Shown piece by piece: positions 2,559-46,550 of a stretch of 64,000 nt of DNA. The notes beneath the pieces are model-generated. The model saw only the letters and a program-made list of their open reading frames with translations. It searched no databases and was not told the DNA's origin. How positions within the stretch are numbered: position 1 is the stretch's first letter; each line of letters begins with the position of its first letter. The position numbers were made by a program, and so were the translations under genes. Source of the DNA: Candidatus Adlerbacteria bacterium (GTDB taxonomy: Bacteria; Patescibacteriota; Minisyncoccia; Phycocordibacterales; SBAW01); NCBI GenBank assembly GCA_037135035.1, contig JBAXLB010000001.1:94465-158464 (forward strand). The letters are read 5' to 3'.

Positions 2559-5500
2559 CTACAGAGCTTTCATTGCTTCGGCAACCATGGAAAGTTCGCC
2601 GTTGCGGTTAGAGACGCGGCCTTTCATGGCAACACAGGTTTCTGGTTTTAACATGTCTTTGTGGGTGGCGTAGTCTTTAGGGAATACAACCGCTTCAATA
2701 GAGCCGTCAAAGTCGGCGAGTTTGATAAACGCCATCTGGTCGCCGCCGCGAGTAAGTATCATGCGAACGTCTTCTATCATGCCGGCGGCAACAGCGGTCA
2801 TGCCGGGCATGATGCGCTGCTTCATCTGGCCTATTGTCATGGGGCGTTTGAGCAGTTTTTCGCGATATTTGTCGAGCGGGTGGCCGGAAATGTAGAGGCC
2901 GAGCAATTCTTTTTCCCACGCAAGGCGAGTTTCGGCAGTTGCGACAGGTGCGTCTGGAAGCTTTATTTCGCTCGATGCACCTGCGTCTGCAAACAAAGAG
3001 TCTTGGCTTTGTTCCGCTCCTGCGTCGCGGTGGTATTGCAGCAACAACTCAAGCGAGGCGAGCATTTGTCCGCGCTCACCAAGCGAGTCGAGTGCGCCGC
3101 ATTCTATTAAAGACTCCAAGCCTCGTTTGTTTAAACTTGTTTTGCCCACGCGCGTGAGGAACGTTGAAAGCGACGTGAACGGTCCGTTTTCTTTCCGCTC
3201 GGCAAGTATGGCGTCGGCAACACCTGCACCAAAGTTTTTTATTGAGTAGAGTCCGAAACGGATGGAGTCTCTGGGAGTTCGCGACACACTCTCTGCGTCG
3301 GTCTTCGGCTCCGCAACCGAGTATGTCGCTCCCTCTGCAAGTATCGCGGTAAAGTCGCCGAAGCTTTCATTAATGTCGGGCGGCAATACAGCCACGCCCA
3401 TGCGTTTACATTCGGCAACCATCACAGAAATAGTATCCAAGTCGCCCGACTCTGCCGTAAGCACTGCGGCCATATACAGTGCAGGGAAGTTGGCTTTCAT
3501 GTACGCAGTTTGGTACGCAACTTTGCCGTAACTTGCAGCGTGTGCTTTACCAAAGCCGTACGCGGCAAAGGGTTCAATAAGTAACCACAATTTTTCTGCC
3601 AACCCGGGGGTTAGTTTGCCAAATTCGACAAAGCCCTTAATTAACTTTTCTTTTTCGGCTTTCATTACTTCGGGAATTTTTTTACCCATGGCTTTGCGCA
3701 ACACGTCGGCCTGCAGCCACGAATAACCAGCGAGCTTTATCGACGTCATCAGCACGTCGTCTTGGTACACAAGTAGGCCGTTGGAAAATTCCAAATATTC
3801 TTTCATGCGTGGGTCCAGGTAGTGCACCAGGTGTGGTTGGTGTTTGCGTTCAATATACTGGGGGATAGTTTCCATCGGTCCCGGGCGGAACAGTGCAACC
3901 ATCGCATTGATGTCGTGTATGGTCGAAGGTTTCAATTCTTTCAAATACCGCGTCATGCCAGTGCCGTTTAGTTGGAAGGTGCCTTCAGTCTCGCCGCGGG
4001 CAAGCATGTCGAATGTTTTTTTGTCGTCGATAGGAACATTTTCAATATCAATTTTTGTCCCGGTGGCTTGCTCTACCAAGGCAACTGCGTGCGCCAAAAT
4101 TGCCAAGTTGCGGATACCAAGGAAGTCGAACTTCAAAAGCCCAGCATCTTCGACCGAATGCATGTCGTACTGGGTAATTATTTTGCCGCCCTTGGGGTCT
4201 TTTTGGAGTGGCGAATATTCTACAAGCGGCTGGGGCGATATAACTACACCCGCTGCGTGTACAGAAATGTGTCGGGCGCTGCCTTCCAGTTTTTTGCCAA
4301 GATCAATTATTTCTTTTGCGTCTTCATCTTCCTTATATATTTTTGCGAGTTCGGGGTTTTCTGCAAGCGCACGCTCGAGTGTCATGGGGAAGCCTTGGCT
4401 CCCAAAAGGAATTTCTTTTGAAATACGGTCGCCCAGGCCGTAGGGGTAGCCAAGCGCGCGTGCTACGTCGCGCACAACGCCGCGAGCCAACATGGTGCCG
4501 AACGTACCAATTTGTGCCACATGGTCCTGGCCATATTTCCGGCGTGCATATTCTATGACCTCGTCGCGCCGGTTGTCGGCGTAGTCCATGTCGATGTCGG
4601 GGGCTGAAGGGCGTTCCGGGTTTAGAAAGCGCTCGAAGGGGAGTTTGTATGCGAGCGGGTCGACGTTGGTAATGCCCAGTGCGTAGGTAACCATCGAACC
4701 TGCGACCGAACCGCGGATGGTTGTCAAAATCCCGTTGGTACGTGCAAAGTTTAACAGGTCGGCCACCACCAAAAAGTATGGCGAATATCCTTTGGTACAA
4801 ATAATCCCGTACTCATATTCAATACGTTCGCGCACGGTGGCGCTTTCGTGCAGGCCGCGGCGCACCAACCCTTCTTCCATAAGGCGGCGGAGTTCGCTGT
4901 CGTAGGTGGTGCCTGCAGGAATAGGGAAGTCGGGGAACACCCACGAGCCAAGTTTTAATTCGACATTACACCTGTCGGCAATTGTGACTGTTTGTGCAAG
5001 TTGTTCTGGCGTAAATTGCTCTTTCATTTCGGCGGCGGTAGGGAAATGGAAGTCCTCTTCTTCTAAACGGGCATTGTCTGTGCCGTCGCTGTGGGCAATT
5101 TTACGCAAGGTCTCCCACGCGCGACGGTCTTCAGGGCGTACATAAAATATCTCGCGCAACGCAACGTCGGTATATAAATTTTTCTCTCCAAAAATTTCGC
5201 GCAGTGTGGGGTCGCTTTGGCTGCTTGTTGCAATAGCGATAACCCCAGCGCTGCGTGCGCGCAGTACGTCGTAGCTGACAGCTATAGCTCCCGCATTTTC
5301 TTTAAAATAAGAGTCTGTTACTGTGGCGAGCAGGTTTTTGTAACCTTCATTATTTTCGGCAAGCAACACCACACGACCGCCAGTTTCGAGTGCAATGTCC
5401 ACGCCAACAATTGGTTTAATCCCTGCATCTTTACATTCTTTTATAAACTCAATGGCCCCGTACATGTTGCCCAAGTCCGTAAGAGCAATTGCTTCGCACC

Positions 5501-5597
5501 CCTGCGCTTTTGCCGCAGCAACCAACTCGGGCAACTTGGGCAGTGCGCCCAGCAGCGAGTAGTGCGAATGGACATGGAGATGAACAAATTTCTGCAT
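2559..5597 (-). CDS. dnaE: DNA polymerase III alpha subunit. Start moved to MQKFVHLHVHS inside the listed ORF.
   Basis: PHP domain at N-terminus (HLHVHSHYSLLGA), polymerase core and OB-fold region. 1013 aa from the internal ATG at 5597. Confidence 0.9.
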   Translation of the reverse strand: MQKFVHLHVHSHYSLLGALPKLPELVAAAKAQGCEAIALTDLGNMYGAIEFIKECKDAGIKPIVGVDIALETGGRVVLLAENNEGYKNLLATVTDSYFKENAGAIAVSYDVLRARSAGVIAIATSSQSDPTLREIFGEKNLYTDVALREIFYVRPEDRRAWETLRKIAHSDGTDNARLEEEDFHFPTAAEMKEQFTPEQLAQTVTIADRCNVELKLGSWVFPDFPIPAGTTYDSELRRLMEEGLVRRGLHESATVRERIEYEYGIICTKGYSPYFLVVADLLNFARTNGILTTIRGSVAGSMVTYALGITNVDPLAYKLPFERFLNPERPSAPDIDMDYADNRRDEVIEYARRKYGQDHVAQIGTFGTMLARGVVRDVARALGYPYGLGDRISKEIPFGSQGFPMTLERALAENPELAKIYKEDEDAKEIIDLGKKLEGSARHISVHAAGVVISPQPLVEYSPLQKDPKGGKIITQYDMHSVEDAGLLKFDFLGIRNLAILAHAVALVEQATGTKIDIENVPIDDKKTFDMLARGETEGTFQLNGTGMTRYLKELKPSTIHDINAMVALFRPGPMETIPQYIERKHQPHLVHYLDPRMKEYLEFSNGLLVYQDDVLMTSIKLAGYSWLQADVLRKAMGKKIPEVMKAEKEKLIKGFVEFGKLTPGLAEKLWLLIEPFAAYGFGKAHAASYGKVAYQTAYMKANFPALYMAAVLTAESGDLDTISVMVAECKRMGVAVLPPDINESFGDFTAILAEGATYSVAEPKTDAESVSRTPRDSIRFGLYSIKNFGAGVADAILAERKENGPFTSLSTFLTRVGKTSLNKRGLESLIECGALDSLGERGQMLASLELLLQYHRDAGAEQSQDSLFADAGASSEIKLPDAPVATAETRLAWEKELLGLYISGHPLDKYREKLLKRPMTIGQMKQRIMPGMTAVAAGMIEDVRMILTRGGDQMAFIKLADFDGSIEAVVFPKDYATHKDMLKPETCVAMKGRVSNRNGELSMVAEAMKAL

Positions 5598-9992: not shown

Positions 9993-12239
9993 ATGCGATT
10001 GAAATCAATAGAACTAAGCGGCTTTAAGTCGTTTGCAAAAAAGACGCAACTAGAATTTGCGTCGGCTATTACGTCTGTTGTGGGGCCTAACGGTTCGGGC
10101 AAAAGTAACATTGCAGAGAGCTTTCGTTTTGTACTTGGCGAGCAGTCGATGAAGTCGATGCGCGGCAAACGCGGCGAAGACATGATCTGGAACGGCTCGG
10201 CTGCGGTGCCCCGTGGCGGGAGAGCGTCGGTCAAACTTGTATTCGACAATAGTGACCGCGCATTAAATTTAGACTTTGACGAAGTTGCGCTCGAGCGCGT
10301 TGTGTACCGAGACGGGGGCAACGACTACTTGCTAAACGGCAGCCAAGTGCGCCTGCGTGACATTTCCGAACTCCTTTCGCAGGCAAACATTGGTGCAACC
10401 GGCCACCATATTATCTCGCAAGGCGAGGCCGACCGTGCACTGTCTGCCAGTGCACGCGAGCGCAGAGAGATGATAGAAGATGCGCTTGGGTTGACCGCGT
10501 ATTTATATAAAAAAGTTGAGGCCGAGAGGAAGTTGGAAAAGACAGCCGAGAACATGCGTGAGGTAAGTAGTTTGCGCCGCGAACTTGCACCCCACCTGCG
10601 TTTTTTGCAAAACCAGGTAAAGAAAATTGAACAGTCGGAACAATTGCGAAGCGAGACGACCGACGCGTACCTCGAATATTTTAAACGCGAAAGTGTGTAC
10701 TTGCGCGTTGCGACAAGTATCCTTGCTGAAGAAAACGATACACCAAAAGAAGAGCACGCACAGCTAAACCAAACGATTGCCCATTTGCGTGGTGAAGTTG
10801 CTAAAAAACAGGGCGACAGCGGTGCGTCGGAGTTAGTTGGGCTGGAACAGGCTGGCCGCGCGGCTGGCGCTCGTGAAGGGGAGGTCGTGCGCGAACTTGG
10901 CCGTATTGAAGGCGAGATGCACGCGCACGAGCGGATTTCCAAAACAGTAGAAGAGTCTGTCCCGGCCGCTGACGTACGTGCGTTTGCAGAGCAGGTAGAA
11001 AAAGATTTGGAAGAAACACTAAACCTTGATGCGACACAGATAAAAAACCGCCTGTCCGCACTTGTGGTATTTGCAAAAGAATTTCTGCGCCGCATGACGC
11101 ACACAAACACTGCTGCTGAACATTCGTTGGAAGAACTACGAAAAAGAAAAGAAGTACTGGAGCAGGAAGTACAGACTCTCCGAGCCGAAAGTGAGCGTGT
11201 TGCTAGTGCGGTGCGTGCCCTGCGGACAAAAATCGAAGGCGAAAAAGACGCAAACAGAGAAGCCGAGCGCGAACTGTTTGCTGCTATGGCACGCCGCAGC
11301 GAGCTGGAAACTGTGCTGGCTGCAGCCCGTGCAGGGGAAGAAAAACTTACTCGCGAACGCGAGCAGTTTAAACAAGAACTGGGCGAAGCGGCCGTGCTTA
11401 TTGGGCGTGCTATAAGCAACTACGAAGAGTATGAAGTCCGTGCGGCAAGCGGGGAAATAGTGTCTGACGCAGACATTGCTGAAGAGGCTCGAAGTGTGCA
11501 GGAAGACAGGCGCCGCAAGCTAGAGCGCATGAAAATTCGCTTAGAAGAACTTGGCGCGGGCAACTCTGCCGAAGTGTTGAAAGAGCATGTGGAAACCGTC
11601 GAGCGCGATGCATTTTTGGCGCGCGAAATTGCCGACCTAGAAGTGTCGGCCCAGTCTTTGCGTGAGCTTATTGAAGAGCTGACTAAAACGTTGCAGGTAA
11701 AATTTGTTGAAGGAATTGAAAAAATAAACAGCGAGTTTGACCGCTTCTTTAAGTTGATGTTTGGCGGGGGCTCGGCAGTACTCGCACGTATAAAAGAGAC
11801 TAAACCACTCCGTGGGAGTGGTCGCCCGACTGACCAAGAAATTGGTCAGTTTAGGGAAAAAGATGAAGACATTTCTGGGGTTGAAGAGGGGGTAGAAATT
11901 ACTATCGCCCTGCCCCACAAGCGCATCAAAGGCCTACACATGCTTTCGGGCGGGGAGCGTGCGCTAACATCTATTGCACTTATTTTTGCAATGAGCCAAG
12001 TTAACCCGCCGCCGTTCCTTATTTTGGACGAAACAGACGCGGCGCTCGACGAAGCCAACTCGCGCCGCTATGGCGACATGATAGAGAGCTTGGCGGAAAA
12101 GTCGCAGCTTATTTTGATAACCCACAATCGCGAAACCATGAGCCGTGCCGGAATTTTGTACGGCGTCACTATGGGCCAAGACGGTGTGTCCAAACTCCTT
12201 TCAGTTAAATTTGAAGAAGCTGTTGCAGTGGCAAAATAA
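9993..12239 (+). CDS. smc: SMC-family chromosome segregation ATPase, short form (748 aa).
   Basis: N-terminal MRLKSIELSGFKSF...GPNGSGKSN Walker A. C-terminal LSGGERALTSIALIFA signature plus Walker B ILDETDAALD. Long coiled-coil between them. Confidence 0.8.
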   Translation: MRLKSIELSGFKSFAKKTQLEFASAITSVVGPNGSGKSNIAESFRFVLGEQSMKSMRGKRGEDMIWNGSAAVPRGGRASVKLVFDNSDRALNLDFDEVALERVVYRDGGNDYLLNGSQVRLRDISELLSQANIGATGHHIISQGEADRALSASARERREMIEDALGLTAYLYKKVEAERKLEKTAENMREVSSLRRELAPHLRFLQNQVKKIEQSEQLRSETTDAYLEYFKRESVYLRVATSILAEENDTPKEEHAQLNQTIAHLRGEVAKKQGDSGASELVGLEQAGRAAGAREGEVVRELGRIEGEMHAHERISKTVEESVPAADVRAFAEQVEKDLEETLNLDATQIKNRLSALVVFAKEFLRRMTHTNTAAEHSLEELRKRKEVLEQEVQTLRAESERVASAVRALRTKIEGEKDANREAERELFAAMARRSELETVLAAARAGEEKLTREREQFKQELGEAAVLIGRAISNYEEYEVRAASGEIVSDADIAEEARSVQEDRRRKLERMKIRLEELGAGNSAEVLKEHVETVERDAFLAREIADLEVSAQSLRELIEELTKTLQVKFVEGIEKINSEFDRFFKLMFGGGSAVLARIKETKPLRGSGRPTDQEIGQFREKDEDISGVEEGVEITIALPHKRIKGLHMLSGGERALTSIALIFAMSQVNPPPFLILDETDAALDEANSRRYGDMIESLAEKSQLILITHNRETMSRAGILYGVTMGQDGVSKLLSVKFEEAVAVAK

Positions 12240-12286: not shown

Positions 12287-12469
12287 GTGGCGGAAAGAAC
12301 AATTGTGTACGGGGACTACACCTACGCACTCGTCAATGGTGTACTCTGCCGCTGGTTTTCGACCCAGCCTAACGAAGTGGGGCGTGAAAAAGTCCCCGAC
12401 GAACATCTGCCCCTTCTTCCACGGCACATTTTGGACCTATTGCCTCAGCGAGATTCAACCTCGCACTAG
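12287..12469 (+). CDS. Possible small protein (60 aa, GTG start) preceded by a GGAGGAG RBS; its 3' end overlaps the convergent rnr.
   Basis: Strong Shine-Dalgarno 8 nt upstream. No homology recognised. Confidence 0.25.
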   Translation: MAERTIVYGDYTYALVNGVLCRWFSTQPNEVGREKVPDEHLPLLPRHILDLLPQRDSTSH

Positions 12470-14572
12470 CTCAAAATCTGCCGTCCTAGCCCCTAGGTCG
12501 GTCGCCACCAACTTTACACGCACGGTGTCCCCGAGCGTGTATTTTTTTTGCGTACGCTGGCCCACCAGCGCATATTCTTTTTGATTGTGAGTATAAAAGT
12601 CGTTGCCAATGGTGCGGACGCGGACCAACCCTTCCGAGGCACTTACTTTGTCTTCCACGTACAAGCCCCAGTCGGTCACGCCAGAAATTGTTGCATCAAA
12701 TTCTTGTCCTACGCGTGCGCTCAAATATTCTACCTGTTTGTAACGGATTGAGTCGCGCTCGGCCGAGGTTGCTTTTGCCTCTTGTTCGCTTGCGGTAATA
12801 CACATTTTTTCCAGCGTCGCATATTCGCGGCGAGTTATAGGTTTGCCGTTTAGGTGTGAGGCAAGGATGCGGTGCACGAGCATATCGGGGTAGCGACGAA
12901 TGGGTGACGTAAAGTGTGTGTAATATTCGAACGCTAGCCCAAAGTGGCCAATGTTTTTGGTCGAGTAAATCGCCTTTGCCATGCTCCGCAGCGTTGCAGT
13001 ACGGATTAAGTGTTCTTCTGGCTTGCCTTTAATTTGCTCAAGCAAGTGTGCGATGTCGCGGGCAGACTTTTTCTTTCCGTGCCCGAATTCGTACCCGACC
13101 GCACGGACAAAGGTGCTGAGCTCACTGATGCGGTCTTCCTTTGGGTCGTCGTGGATGCGATACAAAAATACCAACCCGTGTTCTGGGTTTTTCTCGGCAA
13201 GTTTAGAAACATATTTGGCTACTTCGCGGTTTGCCAAGAGCATAAACTCTTCAATAAGTAGGTTTGTCTCGATACGTTCTTTGCGGACAACGCCGGTGGG
13301 CACGCCTTTTTCGTCCAAAATAAACTTTACTTCGTTGTCACCAAAATCTATCGCACCCTCCTGTTCGCGGGCACGGCGCATGACACGCGCAAGGTCACGG
13401 AGTACTACTAGTTCCTGCGCAAAATTCTCGGCACCAGCTGCCGATTCCGGGTACACAATTTCCTTGCTAGGAAATTGCTCAGTCCTCGCGCCGTCGCGCT
13501 GTGGAGCCCCTTCATCGGCACTAATGCCATCGACACTGTTTAAAATCTCCTGAGCTTCTTCATACGTAAAACGTTTGTTCGAACGTATAACAGACTTTTC
13601 AAATCGGCGGTCGAGCACTTTGCCATCTTTTGTAATAGTAAACGTGGCAGAAAATGCTAGCCTGTCTTCGTCGGCTTTTAAGCTGCATACATTGCCCGAC
13701 AGTTCATGCGGGAGCATGGGTATAGTTGCGTCGACCAAGTACACCGACGTGCCGCGTTTAACAGCTTCATCGTCTATAGCGGTCCCCGGTGCACAGAAGT
13801 ACGTTGCGTCGGCAATGTGTACGCCAATTTCGTACGTGTCTGCGTCTAGTGTTTTTATAGAAAGTGCATCGTCGTAGTCTTTAGCGTCAAACGGGTCGAT
13901 GGTAAACGTAGTTGTGTCGCGGTAGTCTGCACGTTTCGGTACTTCTGAAGCAATAATAGATGCGTGATTTTTTTCAATGTCTCGAGCTTCGGCAAGTACC
14001 TCGGGAGGGAATTCGGTTTTAAACCCATGTTCCAAGACAATGGCGTTCATCTCGACACGGTGTTCGCCTGCGGTGCCAATAACTTCGATAATTTTTCCTT
14101 GTGGGTCTTCGGTGCCAGTAAACGACGTAAGTTGCACGAGCACTTTTGTGCCCTCTGCCAAATCTTCTTGCACAGTGTGCAAGGTAATTGGGCGGTACAC
14201 GCGCTGGTCGGCTGGGGTTGCAACCCACACCCCATTTGCCTTTTTTACTGTCGCAACAAATTCTGTTTTTGCGCGGACTTCTACTTTTAGTACTTTGCCC
14301 CTCGGCCGTGCTCGTCCTACAGGCGAGGCTTTGGGCTGTGAACCTGCGTCTATAACTTCAACAGACACGGTGTCGCCGTTTAAGGCACCACCCAAGTTTG
14401 CTGTATCTATTTCAATATCTTCCCTCGGCCGTTCCCGTCCTACGGGCGAGGCTACCTCTTTACTGGTTCCTTTTTTGGGTGCAATTTCTGCGTCTAGAGT
14501 GGGCCATGCAACATAGCCCACGCCTTTGCGAGTTACTTGTACAATGCCCTGTATATGTTTGTTGGCGACCAC
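12455..14572 (-). CDS. rnr: Ribonuclease R / exoribonuclease II family (RNB domain plus C-terminal S1), carrying two in-frame 10-aa repeat-element insertions near the N-terminus.
   Basis: RNB signature HFGLAFEYYTHFTSPIRRYPDMLVHR and a C-terminal S1 domain. Insertions ASPVGRERPRE and ASPVGRARPRG are encoded by copies of a 30-nt GC-rich repeat. Confidence 0.85.
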   Translation of the reverse strand: MVANKHIQGIVQVTRKGVGYVAWPTLDAEIAPKKGTSKEVASPVGRERPREDIEIDTANLGGALNGDTVSVEVIDAGSQPKASPVGRARPRGKVLKVEVRAKTEFVATVKKANGVWVATPADQRVYRPITLHTVQEDLAEGTKVLVQLTSFTGTEDPQGKIIEVIGTAGEHRVEMNAIVLEHGFKTEFPPEVLAEARDIEKNHASIIASEVPKRADYRDTTTFTIDPFDAKDYDDALSIKTLDADTYEIGVHIADATYFCAPGTAIDDEAVKRGTSVYLVDATIPMLPHELSGNVCSLKADEDRLAFSATFTITKDGKVLDRRFEKSVIRSNKRFTYEEAQEILNSVDGISADEGAPQRDGARTEQFPSKEIVYPESAAGAENFAQELVVLRDLARVMRRAREQEGAIDFGDNEVKFILDEKGVPTGVVRKERIETNLLIEEFMLLANREVAKYVSKLAEKNPEHGLVFLYRIHDDPKEDRISELSTFVRAVGYEFGHGKKKSARDIAHLLEQIKGKPEEHLIRTATLRSMAKAIYSTKNIGHFGLAFEYYTHFTSPIRRYPDMLVHRILASHLNGKPITRREYATLEKMCITASEQEAKATSAERDSIRYKQVEYLSARVGQEFDATISGVTDWGLYVEDKVSASEGLVRVRTIGNDFYTHNQKEYALVGQRTQKKYTLGDTVRVKLVATDLGARTADFELVRG
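14300..14329 (-). repeat. 30-nt GC-rich hairpin repeat (family 1), copy 1, in-frame inside rnr. Coding-strand consensus GCCTCGCCYGTAGGMCGRGMACGGCCGAGG.
   Basis: Plus strand reads CCTCGGCCGTGCTCGTCCTACAGGCGAGGC. Near-identical to the copies at 14423 and 15689 (reverse complement) and encodes ASPVGRARPRG. Confidence 0.8.
14423..14452 (-). repeat. 30-nt GC-rich hairpin repeat (family 1), copy 2, in-frame inside rnr.
   Basis: Plus strand reads CCTCGGCCGTTCCCGTCCTACGGGCGAGGC and encodes ASPVGRERPRE. Confidence 0.8.
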
Positions 14573-14699
14573 TGTTGTTAAAGGGCCTCACGCCCTATGG
14601 GGAGACTCTATTAAACACGAGTATAGCAGGATAATTGACTTATTGCCAGCCCGCTGCTACAGTGTCCCTGACCCCGTGTGGGGCATTTTAAATTACATT

Positions 14700-15101
14700 A
14701 TGTTGACCATACGACTGAGCCGCGTTGGCAGGAAGAACGACCCGAGTTTTCGGGTTATTGTTGTTGAAAGTAAGCGCAAACCACAGCCAGGGAACTACCT
14801 TGAAATGGTTGGTTCGTACAATCCAAAAACAAGCATTGTTGACCTAAAGGCGGACCGCATCAAACACTGGATGTCGATGGGTGCAACTATTTCAGACACT
14901 GTCCACAACTTGCTTGTCACACATAAAATCATCGACGCTAAAAAGATAAATATTTTACCTGCATTTAAAGCAGCACCAGTTGTAGCTGCTCCTGCCGAAG
15001 CAACTCCAACACCTGCAGCAGTAGAAGAAACTCCAGCAGCAGAAGAAGCGCCTGCACAAACAGAGGATAACTCCGTTGCAGAAGAGACTCCTGCACAATA
15101 A
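14700..15101 (+). CDS. rpsP: 30S ribosomal protein S16 with an Ala/Pro/Glu-rich C-terminal tail. Start is at the internal ATG MLTIRLSRVGRK.
   Basis: MLTIRLSRVGRKNDPSFRVIV is the canonical S16 N-terminus. The upstream part of the listed ORF is non-coding. Confidence 0.85.
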   Translation: MLTIRLSRVGRKNDPSFRVIVVESKRKPQPGNYLEMVGSYNPKTSIVDLKADRIKHWMSMGATISDTVHNLLVTHKIIDAKKINILPAFKAAPVVAAPAEATPTPAAVEETPAAEEAPAQTEDNSVAEETPAQ

Positions 15102-15210
15102 AATTGGAAGGGGCTTTATAATCGAGCGAGTGAGAGAACAAAAGTTCACTTTTGATTCCGAGCGAGCGAAGATTATATAAACGAAGTTTATAAAAACTAA
15201 ATATACTGAG

Positions 15211-15597
15211 ATGACAGAAAAGGACCAGGAATTTTTGGAGTTCGTAGTCAAGGGGCTGGTGGACAACCCAGACGATGTAAAAATCGTACGTACTGTCGAC
15301 GAGATGGGTGTGCTCTTGATGCTCGACCTAAACGCTGACGACATGGGTAAGGTTATTGGCCGCTCGGGCAATACCGCAAAAGCTATCCGCACACTGCTCC
15401 GCGTTGTAGGGATGAAGCACAACGCCCGCGTAAACCTCAAAATTAACGAACCGGCAGGCGGCACACGCAGTGCTGAAGCTGGCGGCGGAAGCGCCGCAAC
15501 AGGTTGGGACGGTACACATGCGCCAGAAGTCGCAACTTCTTCGTCTCCTGTGATGAAGACAGTCGACCAAGCAATGGAAGACCTCGGCAATTTCTAG
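15211..15597 (+). CDS. KH-domain RNA-binding protein (UPF0109/YlqC-like).
   Basis: A GKVIGRSG KH loop (GXXG motif) sits in a small protein in the conserved position between rpsP and trmD. Confidence 0.75.
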   Translation: MTEKDQEFLEFVVKGLVDNPDDVKIVRTVDEMGVLLMLDLNADDMGKVIGRSGNTAKAIRTLLRVVGMKHNARVNLKINEPAGGTRSAEAGGGSAATGWDGTHAPEVATSSSPVMKTVDQAMEDLGNF

Positions 15598-15607
15598 TAT
15601 TTTTTAA

Positions 15608-16288
15608 ATGAAATTCCATGTAGTGACACTCTTTCCCGAGGTTATAGACGCATACACGAGCGCGTCTATTTTGGGCCGCGCGCAAAAGGCCTCGCCCGTA
15701 GGCCGGGCACGGCCGAGGGAGAAATTACTGGAAGTAAAAAGCTACCAGCTGCGTGATTTTGTTACTAACAAATGGGGCAAGGTAGACGAGCGCCCGTACG
15801 GCGGCGGCCCAGGCATGGTGCTGCAAGCTGAGCCGTTTATAAAAGCGGTAGAGAAAATCCGTAAGAATAAAAAAGGAATAAAAGTTTTGATAACGTCAGC
15901 GGGCGGGAAGTTGCTTACCAACGCCTACGCAAAAGCGCTTTCCAAACAAAAAGAGGTAATTATTTTATGCGGCCGGTACGAGGGGATTGATGTCCGGGTT
16001 AAAAAAGTACTTAAGGCAGAAGAAGTGTCAGTCGGTCCTTACATTTTGACCGGGGGCGAAGTGCCAGCCTTGGCTATTATCGACGCGGCTGCGCGGCAGA
16101 TCCCCGGCGTGCTCGGCAAATTTGAGTCGCTTGAAGAGGGGAGAGTTGCGTCACACGACGTCTACACTCGCCCTGAAGTTTTGATACATAAAGGCAAAAA
16201 CTATCGTGTGCCCAAAGTGCTCCTTTCGGGTAATCATGCGGAAATGGATGCGTGGAAAGAAAAACGCCGCAGTGGAAAAGGTGCATAA
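15608..16288 (+). CDS. trmD: tRNA (guanine37-N1)-methyltransferase, with an in-frame repeat-element insertion near the N-terminus.
   Basis: TrmD motifs (VVTLFPE, RPYGGGPGMVL, SPOUT knot region). Insertion KASPVGRARPRE lies between GRAQ and KLLEV where E. coli has no insert. Confidence 0.9.
   Translation: MKFHVVTLFPEVIDAYTSASILGRAQKASPVGRARPREKLLEVKSYQLRDFVTNKWGKVDERPYGGGPGMVLQAEPFIKAVEKIRKNKKGIKVLITSAGGKLLTNAYAKALSKQKEVIILCGRYEGIDVRVKKVLKAEEVSVGPYILTGGEVPALAIIDAAARQIPGVLGKFESLEEGRVASHDVYTRPEVLIHKGKNYRVPKVLLSGNHAEMDAWKEKRRSGKGA
15689..15718 (+). repeat. 30-nt GC-rich hairpin repeat (family 1), copy 3, in-frame inside trmD.
   Basis: GCCTCGCCCGTAGGCCGGGCACGGCCGAGG; imperfect 9-bp stem CCTCG(C)CCG / CGG(C)CGAGG. 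Confidence 0.8.
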
Positions 16289-16382
16289 CCCATATTGACT
16301 GAAGAATGCATGAAGAGTATCTTCAGCGGTAATGCGAGCCGCAAGGATCTCTCGCAGAGGACCTCGTTAGGGAGAGTTCAAG

Positions 16383-16508
16383 ATGGCCAAGCCAAAGTTT
16401 GCCAAAGGTATGAACAAGGTGCCCGGCAAGGGTGCGTCGGCGAATGTGGAGGCAGACAAGCGTGCGCTCGAATATCAGCCCAAGAGGGCTGGTAGCGGCA
16501 AGTAGCCC
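16383..16508 (+). CDS. Unlisted small basic protein (41 aa), MAKPKFAKGMNKVPGKGASANVEADKRALEYQPKRAGSGK.
   Basis: ATG preceded by GGAGAG. Lys-rich composition and GC3 usage similar to neighbours. Below the 60-aa cutoff of the ORF track. Confidence 0.35.
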
Positions 16509-17059: not shown

Positions 17060-23911
<6,852 letters not shown>

Positions 23912-32120: not shown

Positions 32121-33113
32121 TTACCAGTCGAGTTCTCCGGTTTTGTATTCGGTCACGCGGGTTTCGAAGAAGTTTTTTTCTTTAGGGACGTCCATAATTT
32201 CTGACATCCAAGGGAACGGGTTTTCTTTATGGTAGTGGCGGTCGAGGCCAATGCGCTCCAAGCGGCGGTCGGTCACGTGCTCTACATACTGCTTTACAGA
32301 CGCAGGGGTGAGCCCCAAGATACCGCGCGGCAGTGCGTCGTCGGAATACTTTTTTTCAAGTTCGGCACCTTTTACGATGTTTGCTTTAAGTGTTGCCTTA
32401 AACTCCGGTGTCCAGATTTCTGGGTTTTCTTGCACGATGGTGTTTATGAGGTCCGCACCAAAGGCAAGGTGAATGGACTCGTCGCGGAGGATAAACTGGA
32501 ACTGCTCGCCGATGCCCACCATGCGGTTTTTGCGCAAGAGCGAAAGCATCATGGCAAAACCTGCGTAAAAGAAGACGCCTTCCATAATGACGTAAAAGCC
32601 AACCAGGTCGTGCACAAACTTTTGGATATTTTCTGTCCCGACAGTTGTAAAGTTCGGGTCAAACACCGACTTAGTAATTTCGACAACAAAGTCATCTTTT
32701 TCTTTAATCGACGGAATCGTCTGGTACATGTTGTAGATCTCGTCGGGGTCGAGGCCTAGCGTGTCACAGCAGTAAATAAACGTGTCGGTGTGCACGGCCT
32801 CTTCGTAACTTTGGCGCAGCAAGTACTGACGTGCTTCAGGGTTAGTTATGTGGCGGTAAATTGCCAGCACCAAGTTGTTTGCGGTCAGCGACTCGGCTGT
32901 AGAGAAAAAGCCAAGGTTCCACAAAATCATGCGGCGTTCGTCTTCCGAAAGTGCACCTGGTTTTTTCCACAACTCGACGTCTTGCTGCATCGAAACTTCT
33001 TCAGGCACCCAGTTGTTTGCAACGCCTTTTTTATAGTGCACGCGCGCCCACGGGTAGCGCATAGGGAGGATTTTATTCGGGTCTGTATTGCTGCCGCCGT
33101 TGATGATACCCAT
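32121..33113 (-). CDS. nrdB: Ribonucleotide reductase class I beta subunit.
   Basis: Ferritin-like R2 fold with iron-ligand motifs (EEAVHTDTF... EGVFFYAGF) and a C-terminal tail. Confidence 0.9.
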   Translation of the reverse strand: MGIINGGSNTDPNKILPMRYPWARVHYKKGVANNWVPEEVSMQQDVELWKKPGALSEDERRMILWNLGFFSTAESLTANNLVLAIYRHITNPEARQYLLRQSYEEAVHTDTFIYCCDTLGLDPDEIYNMYQTIPSIKEKDDFVVEITKSVFDPNFTTVGTENIQKFVHDLVGFYVIMEGVFFYAGFAMMLSLLRKNRMVGIGEQFQFILRDESIHLAFGADLINTIVQENPEIWTPEFKATLKANIVKGAELEKKYSDDALPRGILGLTPASVKQYVEHVTDRRLERIGLDRHYHKENPFPWMSEIMDVPKEKNFFETRVTEYKTGELDW

Positions 33114-33153
33114 AATCTAGTGAGTGAGAGAATAAAAGTTTATTTTTCTAAAT

Positions 33154-36840: not shown

Positions 36841-37533
36841 TTAATTTTTACTCGAGAATAATTCGCGTTCTTTAGGGAACAGCCACAGTGCTATGTGGTA
36901 AATACCGTAGGTGATAAAAAATGCTGACGCGACGTCTATAGAGTAGTGGATGTGCCCAAGCAGCACAATGGTTGCAAAAAATAGAGAAGAGGCAAGGTAA
37001 AAATAGCGCGCAGGGATTTCATTCCAAAATGCCAGTGCTCCTAAAAACGGGAAGCCTGTGTGACCAGAAAAAAAGAGGTCCCCGCCGAAAAAAGCCTGGT
37101 TTACGGTTGTGCCAAAGTCGTCTGCCAAATGTGGGGCAAACGGTGCAAGGTGGGTAAGCGAGGTAAATACCGAACGGATAATAAAAAACAGTGCAGTGGT
37201 ATAGAGCGCAAACGGTATACGTTTAGGGTCTGCAAGGCACAGCACTATGCTGACAAAAATCAGTGCAAATGTCCCCCAGACGAACAAGTTGTCTACTGGA
37301 AGAGCCTGCGTATTTGAAAGTATAAGGTCGGTAACAGAATTACTAACCTTTTCTGAACTAAATTGTATGGCAAGGTTGTTTACCACTAAACTCATAGCAA
37401 AGACTACAAAAGACGTCACTACAGAAAAACGGAACGCGGTGTTTCTGAGCTGGGAACGGTAGCGTGAAGCAATTAGTTTATGCATGAGTGTTGTTTTTGT
37501 GTGCAAGAAGGGCTTCCCGGTAAAATTTTTCAA
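36841..37533 (-). CDS. PAP2-superfamily integral membrane protein (sphingomyelin/inositol-phosphorylceramide synthase-like motifs).
   Basis: Multi-TM protein with SGHTG and HIHYSIDV (PAP2 C2/C3 motifs). Start probably at the internal M (MHKLIAS), which reduces overlap with the upstream gene. Confidence 0.5.
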   Translation of the reverse strand: MKNFTGKPFLHTKTTLMHKLIASRYRSQLRNTAFRFSVVTSFVVFAMSLVVNNLAIQFSSEKVSNSVTDLILSNTQALPVDNLFVWGTFALIFVSIVLCLADPKRIPFALYTTALFFIIRSVFTSLTHLAPFAPHLADDFGTTVNQAFFGGDLFFSGHTGFPFLGALAFWNEIPARYFYLASSLFFATIVLLGHIHYSIDVASAFFITYGIYHIALWLFPKERELFSSKN

Positions 37534-38689
37534 AGGCTTCTAGTGTTTTGTTTATATCATGGTGGGAGATAATTTCGAGGCTGTGCTCCGCCATATTTGC
37601 ACGTTTTGCACCGTCGCTGAACATGTCCACAATGCGGCTGGCGAGTTCTTCGGCATTGCCCGGCTCAAATAAAAAGCCGTTTTTACCATGGTGTATAAGC
37701 TCGGGTAAGGCAACGGCATCTGCGCCAAGTATAGGCAGGCCTGTTGCCATGGCTTCCATAGCAACAATGCATTGTAGTTCTGCGGTGCCTGCGTTTACAA
37801 AGCAGTCTGCTGCGGCGTAGAGGCTAGGAAGTAGCTCATCGGGAACAAAGCCGGTAAAAGTGACATGCTCGGCCACTCCCAATTTCTGCGCTAGTTTTTT
37901 GAGATTAGTATCTTCGGCACCGTGACCTGCAACAATAAAATGTATATCAACTTCTTTTCGTGTCTCACCCGTAGGGCTACGACCGAGGGCAATTGCCACC
38001 GCGCGCAATACTATGTCGACGTTTTTTTCTTTGTCCAAACGCCCCACAAACAGGAGTGTCGGTTTGTTTGGCAAATTATATTTCTCTCGCGCAGGCGCAG
38101 GGTCGTTGTTAGGGTTAAATAGTGCAAGATCTATACCGTTTGAAATTGCCGGCAGTGTCCGTCCTATCCACGGTTCGATAAATGTGTTTGCCGTTTTGGT
38201 GGGGGAGGAAACACCGTATGTTTTGTTGAGTACGCGCACGGCGTCCTTCCATGCCAGAGCATTAATAGTGTCTCGTACAAACTGCGGCACGGGCAGGTAA
38301 TGACTCAAGTTTTCGGGCATAAAGTGGTTAGTGGCTACAACGGGGACATGCTGTCTCTGTGCGACTTTGAGTGTTTGTCTGCTTACAAAAAAGTGCATCT
38401 GTATATGTACGATGTCTGGTTTGAATTCTTGTATAACCTTTGCAATGCGACGGTTTATTATCCATGGCAGCACGAAACGGAATTTGGGCACGAACACGAT
38501 GGGGAATGAACGAACACCATAGAGCGTTACACCATGACGCACGTGTGTGTCATTACCAGTAGTTTGAGATGGGGAGATAACGGCAACCTCGTGCCCTCGC
38601 GCAACAAGAGATGCGGCAAGACGTTGGGTAAAATACGAGGCCCCGTTTACGTGCGGGTAGTAGGTGTCTGATGCGATAAGTACTTTCAT
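37478..38689 (-). CDS. GT4-family glycosyltransferase.
   Basis: N-terminal MKVLIASDTYYPHVNGAS, C-terminal E-x7-E-like region (GLPILGADAVALPELIHHGKNGFLFEP). Confidence 0.8.
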   Translation of the reverse strand: MKVLIASDTYYPHVNGASYFTQRLAASLVARGHEVAVISPSQTTGNDTHVRHGVTLYGVRSFPIVFVPKFRFVLPWIINRRIAKVIQEFKPDIVHIQMHFFVSRQTLKVAQRQHVPVVATNHFMPENLSHYLPVPQFVRDTINALAWKDAVRVLNKTYGVSSPTKTANTFIEPWIGRTLPAISNGIDLALFNPNNDPAPAREKYNLPNKPTLLFVGRLDKEKNVDIVLRAVAIALGRSPTGETRKEVDIHFIVAGHGAEDTNLKKLAQKLGVAEHVTFTGFVPDELLPSLYAAADCFVNAGTAELQCIVAMEAMATGLPILGADAVALPELIHHGKNGFLFEPGNAEELASRIVDMFSDGAKRANMAEHSLEIISHHDINKTLEAFEKFYREALLAHKNNTHA

Positions 38690-45669: not shown

Positions 45670-46101
45670 ATGTCCTTACCCCCATCCCTTGACCTGAAGC
45701 GGATCCTGAATGTGAGAGACGCGCTCCAGACGCATCTCTTCGACGGGGGCTTGATCGATTTCTTTGTCGGTCAAAGGCAGTACCGCATCAATCCTGTCTC
45801 CTTCGAAATGAAGGGCGGTGACGTCGTATTAAAGACGACAAATCCCTTGATGCAATTGAGAGGAGGTGTGTGGAGACCGGCCCGGAATCAGAGCCTCACA
45901 CTAAAGCTTAACGATACGGCCCCCGTCATTCTCGTTCACGGTGAGCCGGATGAGTTGTTGTTGGTTCTCGTAAGTAATGAGACGGAAGAGGGACCGGTCC
46001 AAGTCGTTCTTTACCCTTTTGGCGTCGACCTACAAAACCCTAAAATACAAATATCGGGTTGGAGTAGGGGTGCTCCTCCAAATCTACACAAAAAACCATA
46101 G
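45670..46101 (+). CDS. Hypothetical protein (143 aa).
   Basis: RBS AAGGAG 8 nt upstream of ATG. No homology recognised. Confidence 0.4.
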   Translation: MSLPPSLDLKRILNVRDALQTHLFDGGLIDFFVGQRQYRINPVSFEMKGGDVVLKTTNPLMQLRGGVWRPARNQSLTLKLNDTAPVILVHGEPDELLLVLVSNETEEGPVQVVLYPFGVDLQNPKIQISGWSRGAPPNLHKKP

Positions 46102-46280
46102 TGCGAGGGGACTATGGGTGCAATATTGCAGGCGCTTGGGCGCCTGTTTTTCTTTTGCTCCTCCTGATAGAGGACGTTCCCTCGGCCATAGCCCGGACTA
46201 CGGGCGAGGCGAACCTATTGTGGGTAAAAGAAAAGGCCGCCCTGGTGTGGGAGGCCTTGAGCGGCATTACCGAAGCGCAG

Positions 46281-46550
46281 CTACTTGTCGCGACTGTAAG
46301 CTGCTCCACGAATATCGTCATCGCTCATGTTGGCGATATCGAGGTCGCCACCGAAGAAGCGGTCGAGCAGTTCCCCCGTGCCATCTGTGGGGAAGAGAGT
46401 ACCCAGACGGCCTTTCACTTCCTCGCCGCGTGCATGAGCAGCTTCGGCGGCGGCAACTCCGCCGAACTCCTGCTGCATTAGCTCCATGGATTTTGCAGCT
46501 TTTCCGCGGATGCGCTCCTGTGCTTCGCGGTCTTTATCGGACTCGGACAT
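46281..46550 (-). CDS. Hypothetical small acidic protein (89 aa).
   Basis: ORF with RBS-like AGGAGGA upstream. No homology recognised. Confidence 0.3.
   Translation of the reverse strand: MSESDKDREAQERIRGKAAKSMELMQQEFGGVAAAEAAHARGEEVKGRLGTLFPTDGTGELLDRFFGGDLDIANMSDDDIRGAAYSRDK

Follow-up and report, generated by a model that had tools for sequence, protein, structure and literature searches.

Two kinds of precedent are known for short hairpin repeats in bacterial genomes: palindromic repeats carried in frame within genes, i.e., the Rickettsia palindromic elements (RPEs) and the intragenic repetitive extragenic palindromic sequences (REPs), and pairs of a nuclease with a hairpin, i.e., the REP-associated tyrosine transposases (RAYTs) with REPs and the Ssn proteins with SRM repeats. 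RPE-1 type elements are about 100–150 bp long and add 30–50 residues to the host protein. Intragenic REPs tagged with GTAG or CGTC have been described, some of them in frame in replication and repair genes and sometimes two per open reading frame (ORF; Di Nocera et al. 2013, PMC3733652). The Ssn proteins are single-domain GIY-YIG proteins that cut single-stranded DNA (ssDNA) beside ~30-nt hairpin repeats flanking their own genes; Rickettsia and Wolbachia are rich in Ssn-type hairpin repeats, and in Neisseria meningitidis only 2% of the NTS repeats are intragenic (Chenal et al. 2025, PMC11893778). Free-standing GIY-YIG homing endonuclease genes also occur near tRNA genes, e.g., that of SegB in phage T4 (PMC2330249). 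Here we describe a GC-rich hairpin repeat in a 64,000-nt stretch of a Candidatus Adlerbacteria genome (GCA_037135035.1, contig JBAXLB010000001.1, positions 94,465–158,464; hereafter the window), three copies of which lie in frame in the genes of RNase R (rnr) and TrmD (trmD). It is very probably a REP-like mobile repeat, one subfamily of which preserves the reading frame. Related copies lie beside a gene for a small GIY-YIG protein.

The 30-mer GCCTCGCCYGTAGGMCGRGMACGGCCGAGG matched the window without mismatches at 14300–14329 and 14423–14452 on the minus strand and at 15689–15718 on the plus strand, as the original prediction had located it. No further match was found in the window at up to three mismatches, and none occurred by chance in 100 dinucleotide-preserving shuffles. 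The first two copies lie in the N-terminal region of RNase R (12455–14572, minus strand, 705 aa; the Pfam RNB and CSD2 families were assigned on rnr orthologues of 648–659 aa) and the third in trmD (15608–16288, plus strand, 226 aa, Pfam PF01746), whose product is 100% identical to the TrmD of a Candidatus Adlerbacteria metagenome-assembled genome (MAG). Each copy is sense to its host gene and lengthens it in frame by a net 30 nt, reading ASPVGRARPR between K and GKV (14300), ASPVGRERPR between KEV and EDI (14423) and ASPVGRARPR between GRAQK and EKLL (TrmD). The peptide had been given as ASPVGR(A/E)RPR followed by E or G. That final residue proved to be the native next residue of the host protein, so that the insert spans 10 codons, not 11.

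A profile of family members (nhmmer), used together with a relaxed palindrome pattern, gave four strong matches and one weak match in the window, two more copies than were known from the original prediction. The strongest match (E = 9e-11) was a 31-nt intergenic copy at 46179–46210 on the minus strand, with a 10-nt centre (a 30-nt core plus a flanking G) that is one base longer than in the in-ORF copies. It is located in the spacer between the convergent ORFs 45670–46101(+) and 46281–46550(−) and lies 30 nt after a terminator-like hairpin at 46128–46147. The weak match (E = 0.47) was a decayed and shortened 27-nt copy, CTCACCCGTAGGGCTACGACCGAGGG, at about 37964–37989 on the plus strand, antisense in ORF 37478–38689(−), a putative GT4-type glycosyltransferase gene as read from its sequence. 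Its translation, ALGRSPTGET, matches the antisense-frame peptide LGRARPTGEA of the DnaG, membrane-protein and Ldt inserts in other genomes, and the copy is probably a family member. Thus, four of the five window copies are intragenic.

The syntenic locus of another Adlerbacteria MAG (L031) was 92–94% identical in DNA to the window over rnr-rpsP-KH and ~83% over trmD. It retained the 14300 copy with one substitution. The 14423 copy was missing by an exact 30-nt gap (empty site, in sense, GAAGTA^GAAGAT), and so was the trmD copy (empty site CAAAAG^GA). In three further relatives (L100, L104, and L105) both rnr copies were absent, and the empty site of the 14300 copy, ACC AAA^GGC AAA, differed from the window by exactly 30 nt. 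This exact presence and absence bore out the earlier suggestion that ORFs have been colonised by a DNA element that is mobile or structured. Judged from these alignments, the window copies are recent insertions.

Related copies were sought with the pattern CCTCGCCYGTAGN{9,10}GGCCGAGG in one genome per GTDB species. This gave 37 loci, of which 32 were real and shared the centre GG[AC]CGGGC(T)AY; a scan of JGI metagenomes added ~44 real copies. The matches with unrelated centres (5/37 in genomes and about 18/62 in metagenomes) were set aside as chance, ~4 being expected per 596 Gb. About 60 unique copies were obtained in other genomes, and a scan of IMG/VR found no copy in viral contigs. The pattern demanded exact arms and so under-sampled diverged copies, such as those in the TrmD gene of L107 and at 37964 in the window. 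All but three of the 32 real GTDB matches carried a label of the Candidate Phyla Radiation (CPR, Patescibacteria). The MAGs with real copies were labelled Uhrbacteria, Paceibacterota, Saccharibacteria, Giovannonibacteria, Adlerbacteria, Nomurabacteria, and "Patescibacteria group", and the GC contents of the loci ranged from 0.34 to 0.69. The other three were labelled Gammaproteobacteria; the contigs of "uncultured Gammaproteobacteria" with the hairpin were L003, L017, and L028. L017 showed the dnaG-rpoD synteny of the window and the UvrB of L028 was about 72% identical to that of CPR loci, and these two are probably mislabelled or mis-binned CPR contigs.

The coding copies were distributed over unrelated genes. 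In sense, they were read as ASPVGRARPR in the C-terminal tail of UvrB (L020 and L053) and in an RluA-type pseudouridine synthase (L040), and in another frame as LARS/RT..AEE/G in ArgS (L035) and at a second site of a TrmD (L102). In antisense, they were read as LGRARPTGE in DnaG (L017), a membrane protein (L006), an Ldt/PBP tail (L007), and a PfkB kinase (L026), and in another frame as PSAMPGLRAR in CysS (L009). Four reading frames and both orientations were therefore used, and about half of all copies were non-coding. A single orientation and frame, as originally predicted, applied to the three window copies but not as a rule of the family; the search of related genomes that had been proposed recovered coding copies in frame, together with the non-coding half and both orientations. 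Because the same sequence occurs in four frames, both orientations, unrelated genes, and intergenic positions, it is a DNA element and not a peptide motif. Members of the family are short, GC-rich quasi-palindromic repeats, mobile both within single CPR genomes and from one such genome to another.

The conserved unit is G-CCTCGCCCGTAG-(centre)-GGCCGAGG-G. It ends in G-CCTCG...CGAGG-G, GTAG/CTAC forms the inner stem, and CGTC is absent. A G was found at −1 in 55/60 copies and at +1 in 58/60, and no other flank position was conserved. Wherever an empty site was available for comparison, the net insertion was the core plus one base: 30 nt for the three window copies and 31 nt for 30-nt cores in tRNA fragments, with the intact tRNA as reference. 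This indicated that one flanking G is target-derived or duplicated. At the junctions of the copies compared there was neither a longer target duplication nor a clear target motif. A CRISPR repeat was considered and rejected on anatomy alone, the unit being palindromic end to end, irregularly spaced, and located inside ORFs.

Two main length classes were distinguished. The commoner one has a 30-nt core with the centre ...GGCCGGGCTAYGG... and a 5+6-bp stem around a C.C mismatch. In the 29-nt class, the T of CTAC is mostly lost (...GGGCACGG...), and a few members have other single-base losses. Counted as independent events after manual curation, all 13 coding insertions had a 29-nt core (net +30 nt) and none a 30-nt core, whereas the non-coding copies had a 30-nt core in 29/40 cases and a 29-nt core in 11/40 (Fisher p = 3e-6). 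This length rule agreed with the earlier proposal that a 30-nt insert keeps the frame. The copies of L093, L001, and L061, which looked like coding exceptions, precede the true start codon. The 30-nt-core form is confined to non-coding DNA, where it was found between convergent genes, in 5′ leaders, and at terminator positions; 27-, 36-, and 40-nt versions also occurred among non-coding copies. Since the ...GGGCACGG... form was present at many unrelated sites and hosts, we infer that this 29-nt subfamily spreads as such and does not arise by deletion after insertion.

The fold differed between the two settings. For the in-ORF window copies, the predicted hairpin was borne out only in part: they can form a stem of 5+4 bp with one C.C (G.G) mismatch and a 9-nt loop instead of the proposed 9-bp imperfect stem with an 11-nt loop. 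Their DNA folding energies were −6 to −11.5 kcal/mol, no more than 0.5–2.7 standard deviations better than shuffles. The intergenic copy at 46179–46210 (−10.6 kcal/mol, clean 5+7-bp stem) is a better hairpin. Rfam, at E up to 10 for 14000–16500 and at gathering thresholds on 20 loci, placed no RNA family over the element; its matches nearby were limited to tRNAs and one 16S gene. The repeat did not appear to be part of a composite larger element, as similarity in all-against-all blastn of ±150 nt ended within a few bases of the core, except for orthologous loci and genome-specific flanks (GAATGG...GAGCCTCC in DATDYW and GGGCGTTAAGG on both sides in JAZDHJ). In one Uhrbacteria MAG (L033 about 4990–5090; L014, L022, and L030), hairpins were bracketed by GGGCGTTAAGG-like direct repeats, and L033 also contained a hairpin with a second sequence nested in its loop, beside an intact copy.

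In these features the repeat resembles both of the in-frame precedents. Like GTAG- and CGTC-tagged REPs, it is an imperfect GC-rich palindrome within the 20–40-bp range, present in many copies (4–5 per 64 kb here) and located mostly between convergent or co-directional genes, and like intragenic REPs it occurs in frame in replication and repair genes and twice in one ORF. It differs in that four of the five window copies are intragenic and in that its ends carry neither a GTAG nor a CGTC tag, the GTAG of this element belonging to the stem. The likeness to RPEs that had been noted from the sequence held: both are palindromes in frame in conserved ORFs, at tolerated positions and patchily distributed among relatives. 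However, the present element adds only 30 nt or 10 residues, occurs in CPR hosts, and has no sequence similarity to RPEs. It also lacks the characters of miniature inverted-repeat transposable elements (terminal inverted repeats of an insertion sequence, a target-site duplication of ≥2 bp, and a size of 70–300 bp), being 30–31 nt long with one ambiguous junction G.

In many non-coding loci, the Rfam scan placed tRNA genes about 270–295 nt from the hairpin. Reading of this interval revealed an ORF of 83–86 aa with the pattern MHYVYxLKS..G.LYIGCT.D...R...H..G....TK...P..L.Y.E. Pfam assigned GIY-YIG (PF01541) and two related families to the same stretch (E = 1e-16 to 1e-12) and no second domain, and no NCBIfam family was found for it. 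According to tblastn, the hairpin lay 13–52 nt upstream of the GIY-YIG start in ten distinct loci (L005, L010, L027, L038, L045, L049, L051, L078, L080, and L087) among about 60 unique hairpin loci, and L108 and L117 brought the number to at least 12. At L008, the hairpin is about 25 nt past the GIY-YIG stop codon, and at L087 it is present on both sides of the ORF. The ORF was followed by tRNA-Ser or tRNA-Gln in these loci except L078, where no tRNA was found.

The 5′ part of the adjacent tRNA-Ser or tRNA-Gln is duplicated in these loci, and the hairpin was placed inside this extra fragment. At L049, for example, the order is ATTGCCAG, hairpin, ATCGTCTA, compared with the tRNA start ATTGCCAGATCGTCTAATGG. 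Across loci, the hairpin had entered the fragments in either orientation and at no fewer than four positions, which indicated independent insertions. As an unbiased check, four GIY-YIG homologues were chosen by protein search, and two of them (P0132 and P0124) had the hairpin, in 40-nt versions, at the same tRNA-Ser fragment position. The cassette of L021 was of the same type and carried a different 36-nt hairpin, TCACCGCCTATGGCGGGACCCCGCTGAAAGCGGTGG, which shared 30/36 positions with the insert that L103 has in frame in TrmD, all differences lying in the two loops. Two hairpin families thus lead the same double life.

This arrangement is close to the Ssn/SRM systems, in which a very small single-domain GIY-YIG protein (about 85–94 aa) is encoded beside a ~30-nt GC-rich hairpin (PMC11893778). 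In both cases the hairpin exists in many dispersed genomic copies, and different nuclease lineages have different hairpins; for the present family, the pairing was seen in related loci and not in the window. In contrast to Ssn/SRM, the hairpin studied here has no CGTC tag, is usually only 5′ of the gene and inside a duplicated tRNA fragment, and occurs in CPR hosts, with a frame-preserving subfamily that is common inside essential ORFs. The location of the GIY-YIG gene in a tRNA region, with a duplicated target fragment that suggests insertion by cleavage and repair, is also similar to SegB-type genes. The duplication of the tRNA 5′ fragment, as read from sequence, would be compatible with a homing-like insertion. 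However, homing endonucleases of the Seg type combine a catalytic with a DNA-binding domain and cut double-stranded DNA, whereas the CPR protein is the bare GIY-YIG domain; the dispersed hairpin repeat is another difference from Seg genes. A literature search found no report linking CPR or Patescibacteria with REP-like repeats or with a GIY-YIG–hairpin arrangement. Among the features not met in the literature were the tRNA-fragment setting, the one-base frame rule, the TrmD hot spot of several families, and the CPR-wide spread. By analogy, the family is best called one that works like an Ssn/SRM or REP system, and it is a candidate member of either.

Here, a mechanism is proposed to account for both parts of the pattern. 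A small cassette at tRNA-Ser or tRNA-Gln genes would encode the 83–86-aa single-domain GIY-YIG nuclease as the mobilising agent. This nuclease would recognise the hairpin in ssDNA and nick beside it, a role suggested by the Ssn nucleases, which cut ssDNA beside flanking ~30-nt hairpins (PMC11893778). Host repair or replication would then install the hairpin, by copying or ligation, at new sites that contain a G, and only net 30-nt inserts would persist in ORFs, solely in tolerant surface loops or tails. That only 29-nt-core copies survive in ORFs accounts for the clean decapeptides, three in number, that RNase R and TrmD of the window carry. Taken as a blend of the mobile repeat and the nuclease, this is our best explanation and is somewhat better supported than an even chance, while for the partnership of the nuclease in the spread of the hairpin, drawn from analogy, the chance is close to even at best. 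A wider version can be put forward only tentatively and is rather doubtful: a CPR nuclease–hairpin mobile system, with the GIY-YIG cassette in tRNA-Ser and tRNA-Gln genes, in which cognate hairpins of 30–36 nt spread across lineages of differing GC content, perhaps by natural transformation, are delivered repeatedly in a homing-like manner to the same positions of essential genes (TrmD K27/E28, with three hairpin sequences), and leave frame-preserving variants as DNA-level "mini-inserts" in core proteins.

Several observations weigh against this explanation. The uniformity of the arms was partly built in by the exact-match pattern, and the association of hairpin and nuclease was drawn from loci chosen for the hairpin. 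At the other two of the four protein-anchored GIY-YIG loci (P0176 and P0183), no hairpin was found, and the 64-kb window contained neither a GIY-YIG homologue nor a tRNA gene. The in-ORF copies fold barely better than shuffles. GIY-YIG enzymes are hydrolytic, so that the insertion step would need host functions. The nearest PDB relatives of the 83–86-aa ORF were UPF0213 proteins (1zg2 and 1ywl; E = 9e-8), and a regular expression of the SRM consensus HGTCWY..YYVSBRH..WNVSBRG..RNCYNB, run on both strands, matched 0/60 copies and no site in the window.

As for the locus of P0183 (Kaiserbacteria, L115 about 1940–2290), there was no tRNA nearby either, and a 20-nt inverted repeat, ATCCAGCACTAACTTAGTTG ... 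CAACTAAGTTAGTGCTGGAT, stood on either side of its ORF, as though the gene lay in the loop of a long hairpin.

Some of these points would also fit a hairpin that is an independent repeat, selfish or used by the host (as a REP-like terminator, an mRNA stabiliser, or the site of another protein), which shares tRNA-proximal havens with the GIY-YIG gene while the nuclease is uninvolved. Such a repeat could be missing from two of four GIY-YIG loci and present in five copies in a window that has no GIY-YIG gene. In low-GC genomes, the non-coding copies of L008, L060, and L088 are followed by T-runs in the manner of intrinsic terminators, and the intergenic window copy between convergent genes is at a classic REP location (PMC3733652). 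A terminator role, however, leaves an exact 30-nt insertion in the middle of an essential ORF unexplained. Shared havens also fit poorly with the ten hairpin-anchored loci, in which the hairpin was ≤52 nt from the nuclease start and had entered the tRNA fragments at four or more positions, and with the second, unrelated hairpin family that was paired likewise with GIY-YIG. We consider an uninvolved nuclease the most serious of the alternatives, yet an unlikely one.

The trmD site appeared to be a hot spot. About 105 of 120 TrmD homologues had no insert there (...GRAQKEKKL...), in agreement with the earlier remark that the insertion falls where the Escherichia coli TrmD has no residues, and five carried ASPVG(R/Q)ARPR. 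In an AlphaFold2 model, the insert (residues 28–37) was predicted as a coil between helix 21–26 and strand 42–47 (pLDDT 66–74). The 30 nt were identical, synonymous positions included, in the window, L100, L102, and L106, whose TrmD proteins were 76–82% identical (DNA 77–83% where measured) and whose flanking codons differed. L107 had a decayed 30-nt copy at this site. Exactly there, L104 (6082–6111) and P0115 carried a different 30-nt GC-rich sequence, AGGCGCCGCCCAGAGAGCTCTGCCCGGCGG (RRRPE[S/G]SARR), palindromic by eye and not found elsewhere among the loci collected, and L103 carried the 36-nt double hairpin in frame. Thus, the TrmD site has been used by at least two hairpin families in separate TrmD lineages, and probably by a third. 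In the window, blastn-short detected neither the L103- and L104-type families nor the insert of a second TrmD site.

With the insert columns removed, a neighbour-joining tree distributed the insert-bearing TrmDs over five or six lineages, all of them with insert-less neighbours. All insert-bearing alleles had the downstream codons GAR AAA TTA YT, and the insert-less alleles differed. Identical inserts, scattered lineages, and common downstream codons suggest, at the level of sequence, either the repeated delivery of insert and flank together (homing or conversion) or an old ancestry with many precise losses. The latter would be a single ancient vertical insertion, lost precisely many times by hairpin-stimulated slippage between the flanking AGG...AGG. 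The shared downstream codons, the short AGG direct repeats that bracket the element, and the decayed L107 copy, which shows that old copies exist, are in its favour. It has difficulty with the five or six separate lineages with insert-less nearest neighbours, with 30 nt that stayed identical in four lineages while the rest of TrmD diverged, and with the two other hairpin sequences at the same site (L104 and L103). Vertical descent with repeated loss is improbable, but deserves some weight.

Further inserts were observed at two other loops of the TrmDs of relatives. L102 (3800–3831) had a second copy of the studied hairpin in another frame (LARRTGTAEG) after ...EKIKQ, and the TrmDs of P0034/L106 and P0097 had unrelated inserts of ~15 aa between N54 and K55 (LAKPQSGRGTGTWEY and PAKRARGASKWFY).

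Movement of the repeat by another enzyme was also considered, namely as a REP/REPIN-type element moved by a RAYT or an IS200/IS605-type Y1 (HUH) transposase that would act on hairpins in single-stranded form. In its size, imperfect GC-rich palindrome, target duplication of ≤1 nt, and dispersed copies, the repeat resembles REPs (PMC3733652), it contains GTAG...CTAC, and an IS200-like TnpA exists in a sister genome. This is nevertheless very unlikely. The GTAG lies inside the stem and is not a terminal tag, and tblastn with IS608 TnpA and Escherichia coli RayT probes detected no Y1 transposase in the window or beside about 100 hairpin loci. A RAYT flanked by the repeat was likewise not found with these probes in the window and the loci collected, whole genomes being outside this search. 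The TnpA of the sister genome, the only one detected, is 5 kb from the hairpin and flanked by unrelated hairpins. That gene, at 5591–6046 of L011 in a sister Adlerbacteria MAG, encodes an IS200/IS605-type TnpA of 151 aa with an HxH motif.

That the decapeptide is a functional protein motif (e.g., an Arg/Pro-rich RNA-binding loop) with the nucleotide repeat as a by-product is extremely improbable: the host enzymes of the three window copies do process or modify RNA, all three copies specify the same basic peptide, and the TrmD copy is 30/30 identical across lineages with diverged flanks, but in unrelated proteins this DNA is translated in four different frames and in either orientation, and it also lies between genes, its identity covers all synonymous positions, the insert is missing in the closest relatives, and the TrmD insert was modelled as a low-confidence coil.

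Some other features of the window were observed. A perfect 7-bp hairpin, CCACTCC-GTG-GGAGTGG, at 11803–11822 in the SMC ORF 9993–12239 is located in a variable linker, PLRGSGRPTDQEIG, of which ~9 residues are missing in the L105 orthologue. It may be another in-frame hairpin or plain linker variability. A 36-nt direct repeat, ATAATCGAGCGAGTGAGAGAACAAAAGTTCACTTTT, was present with 86% identity in the intergenic leaders 15118–15153 and 33112–33147, and one of its copies precedes the KH-domain gene at 15211. In the rnr-rpsP spacer (14573–14700), the first 60–70 bases were identical between the window and L031 while the adjacent 5′ end of rnr was divergent; the spacer contains small GC hairpins, e.g., CCCCGTGTGGGG, and may be a promoter or leader. 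ORF 17060–23911(+) encodes an rpoB-rpoC fusion of 2283 aa, which was also present in L101, L103, and L105 (2277–2289 aa), in contrast to the separate rpoC (1246 aa) in L104. ORF 130–1113 is repetitive, especially at 219–355 and 529–798, with short GGN-rich repeats and a tandem array of four 54-nt units that are 66–76% identical, and it probably encodes a repetitive Gly-rich surface protein.

How REP- or RPE-like hairpins enter ORFs has long been unresolved. With filled and empty sites defined to the base, a length rule of one base, and a hot spot that recurs, this family makes the question accessible to tests. The hairpin with its bare GIY-YIG gene is a candidate site-specific ssDNA nuclease of new specificity, a class of biotechnological interest. 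The occurrence of the same 30-mer in hosts of 34%–69% GC suggests gene flow or shared recognition machinery across CPR classes. In core proteins of CPR bacteria, a "lineage-specific insert" of ten residues can be the trace of a selfish DNA repeat and not an adaptation, and such selfish-repeat inserts affect CPR alignments, phylogenies, and structure-based inference.

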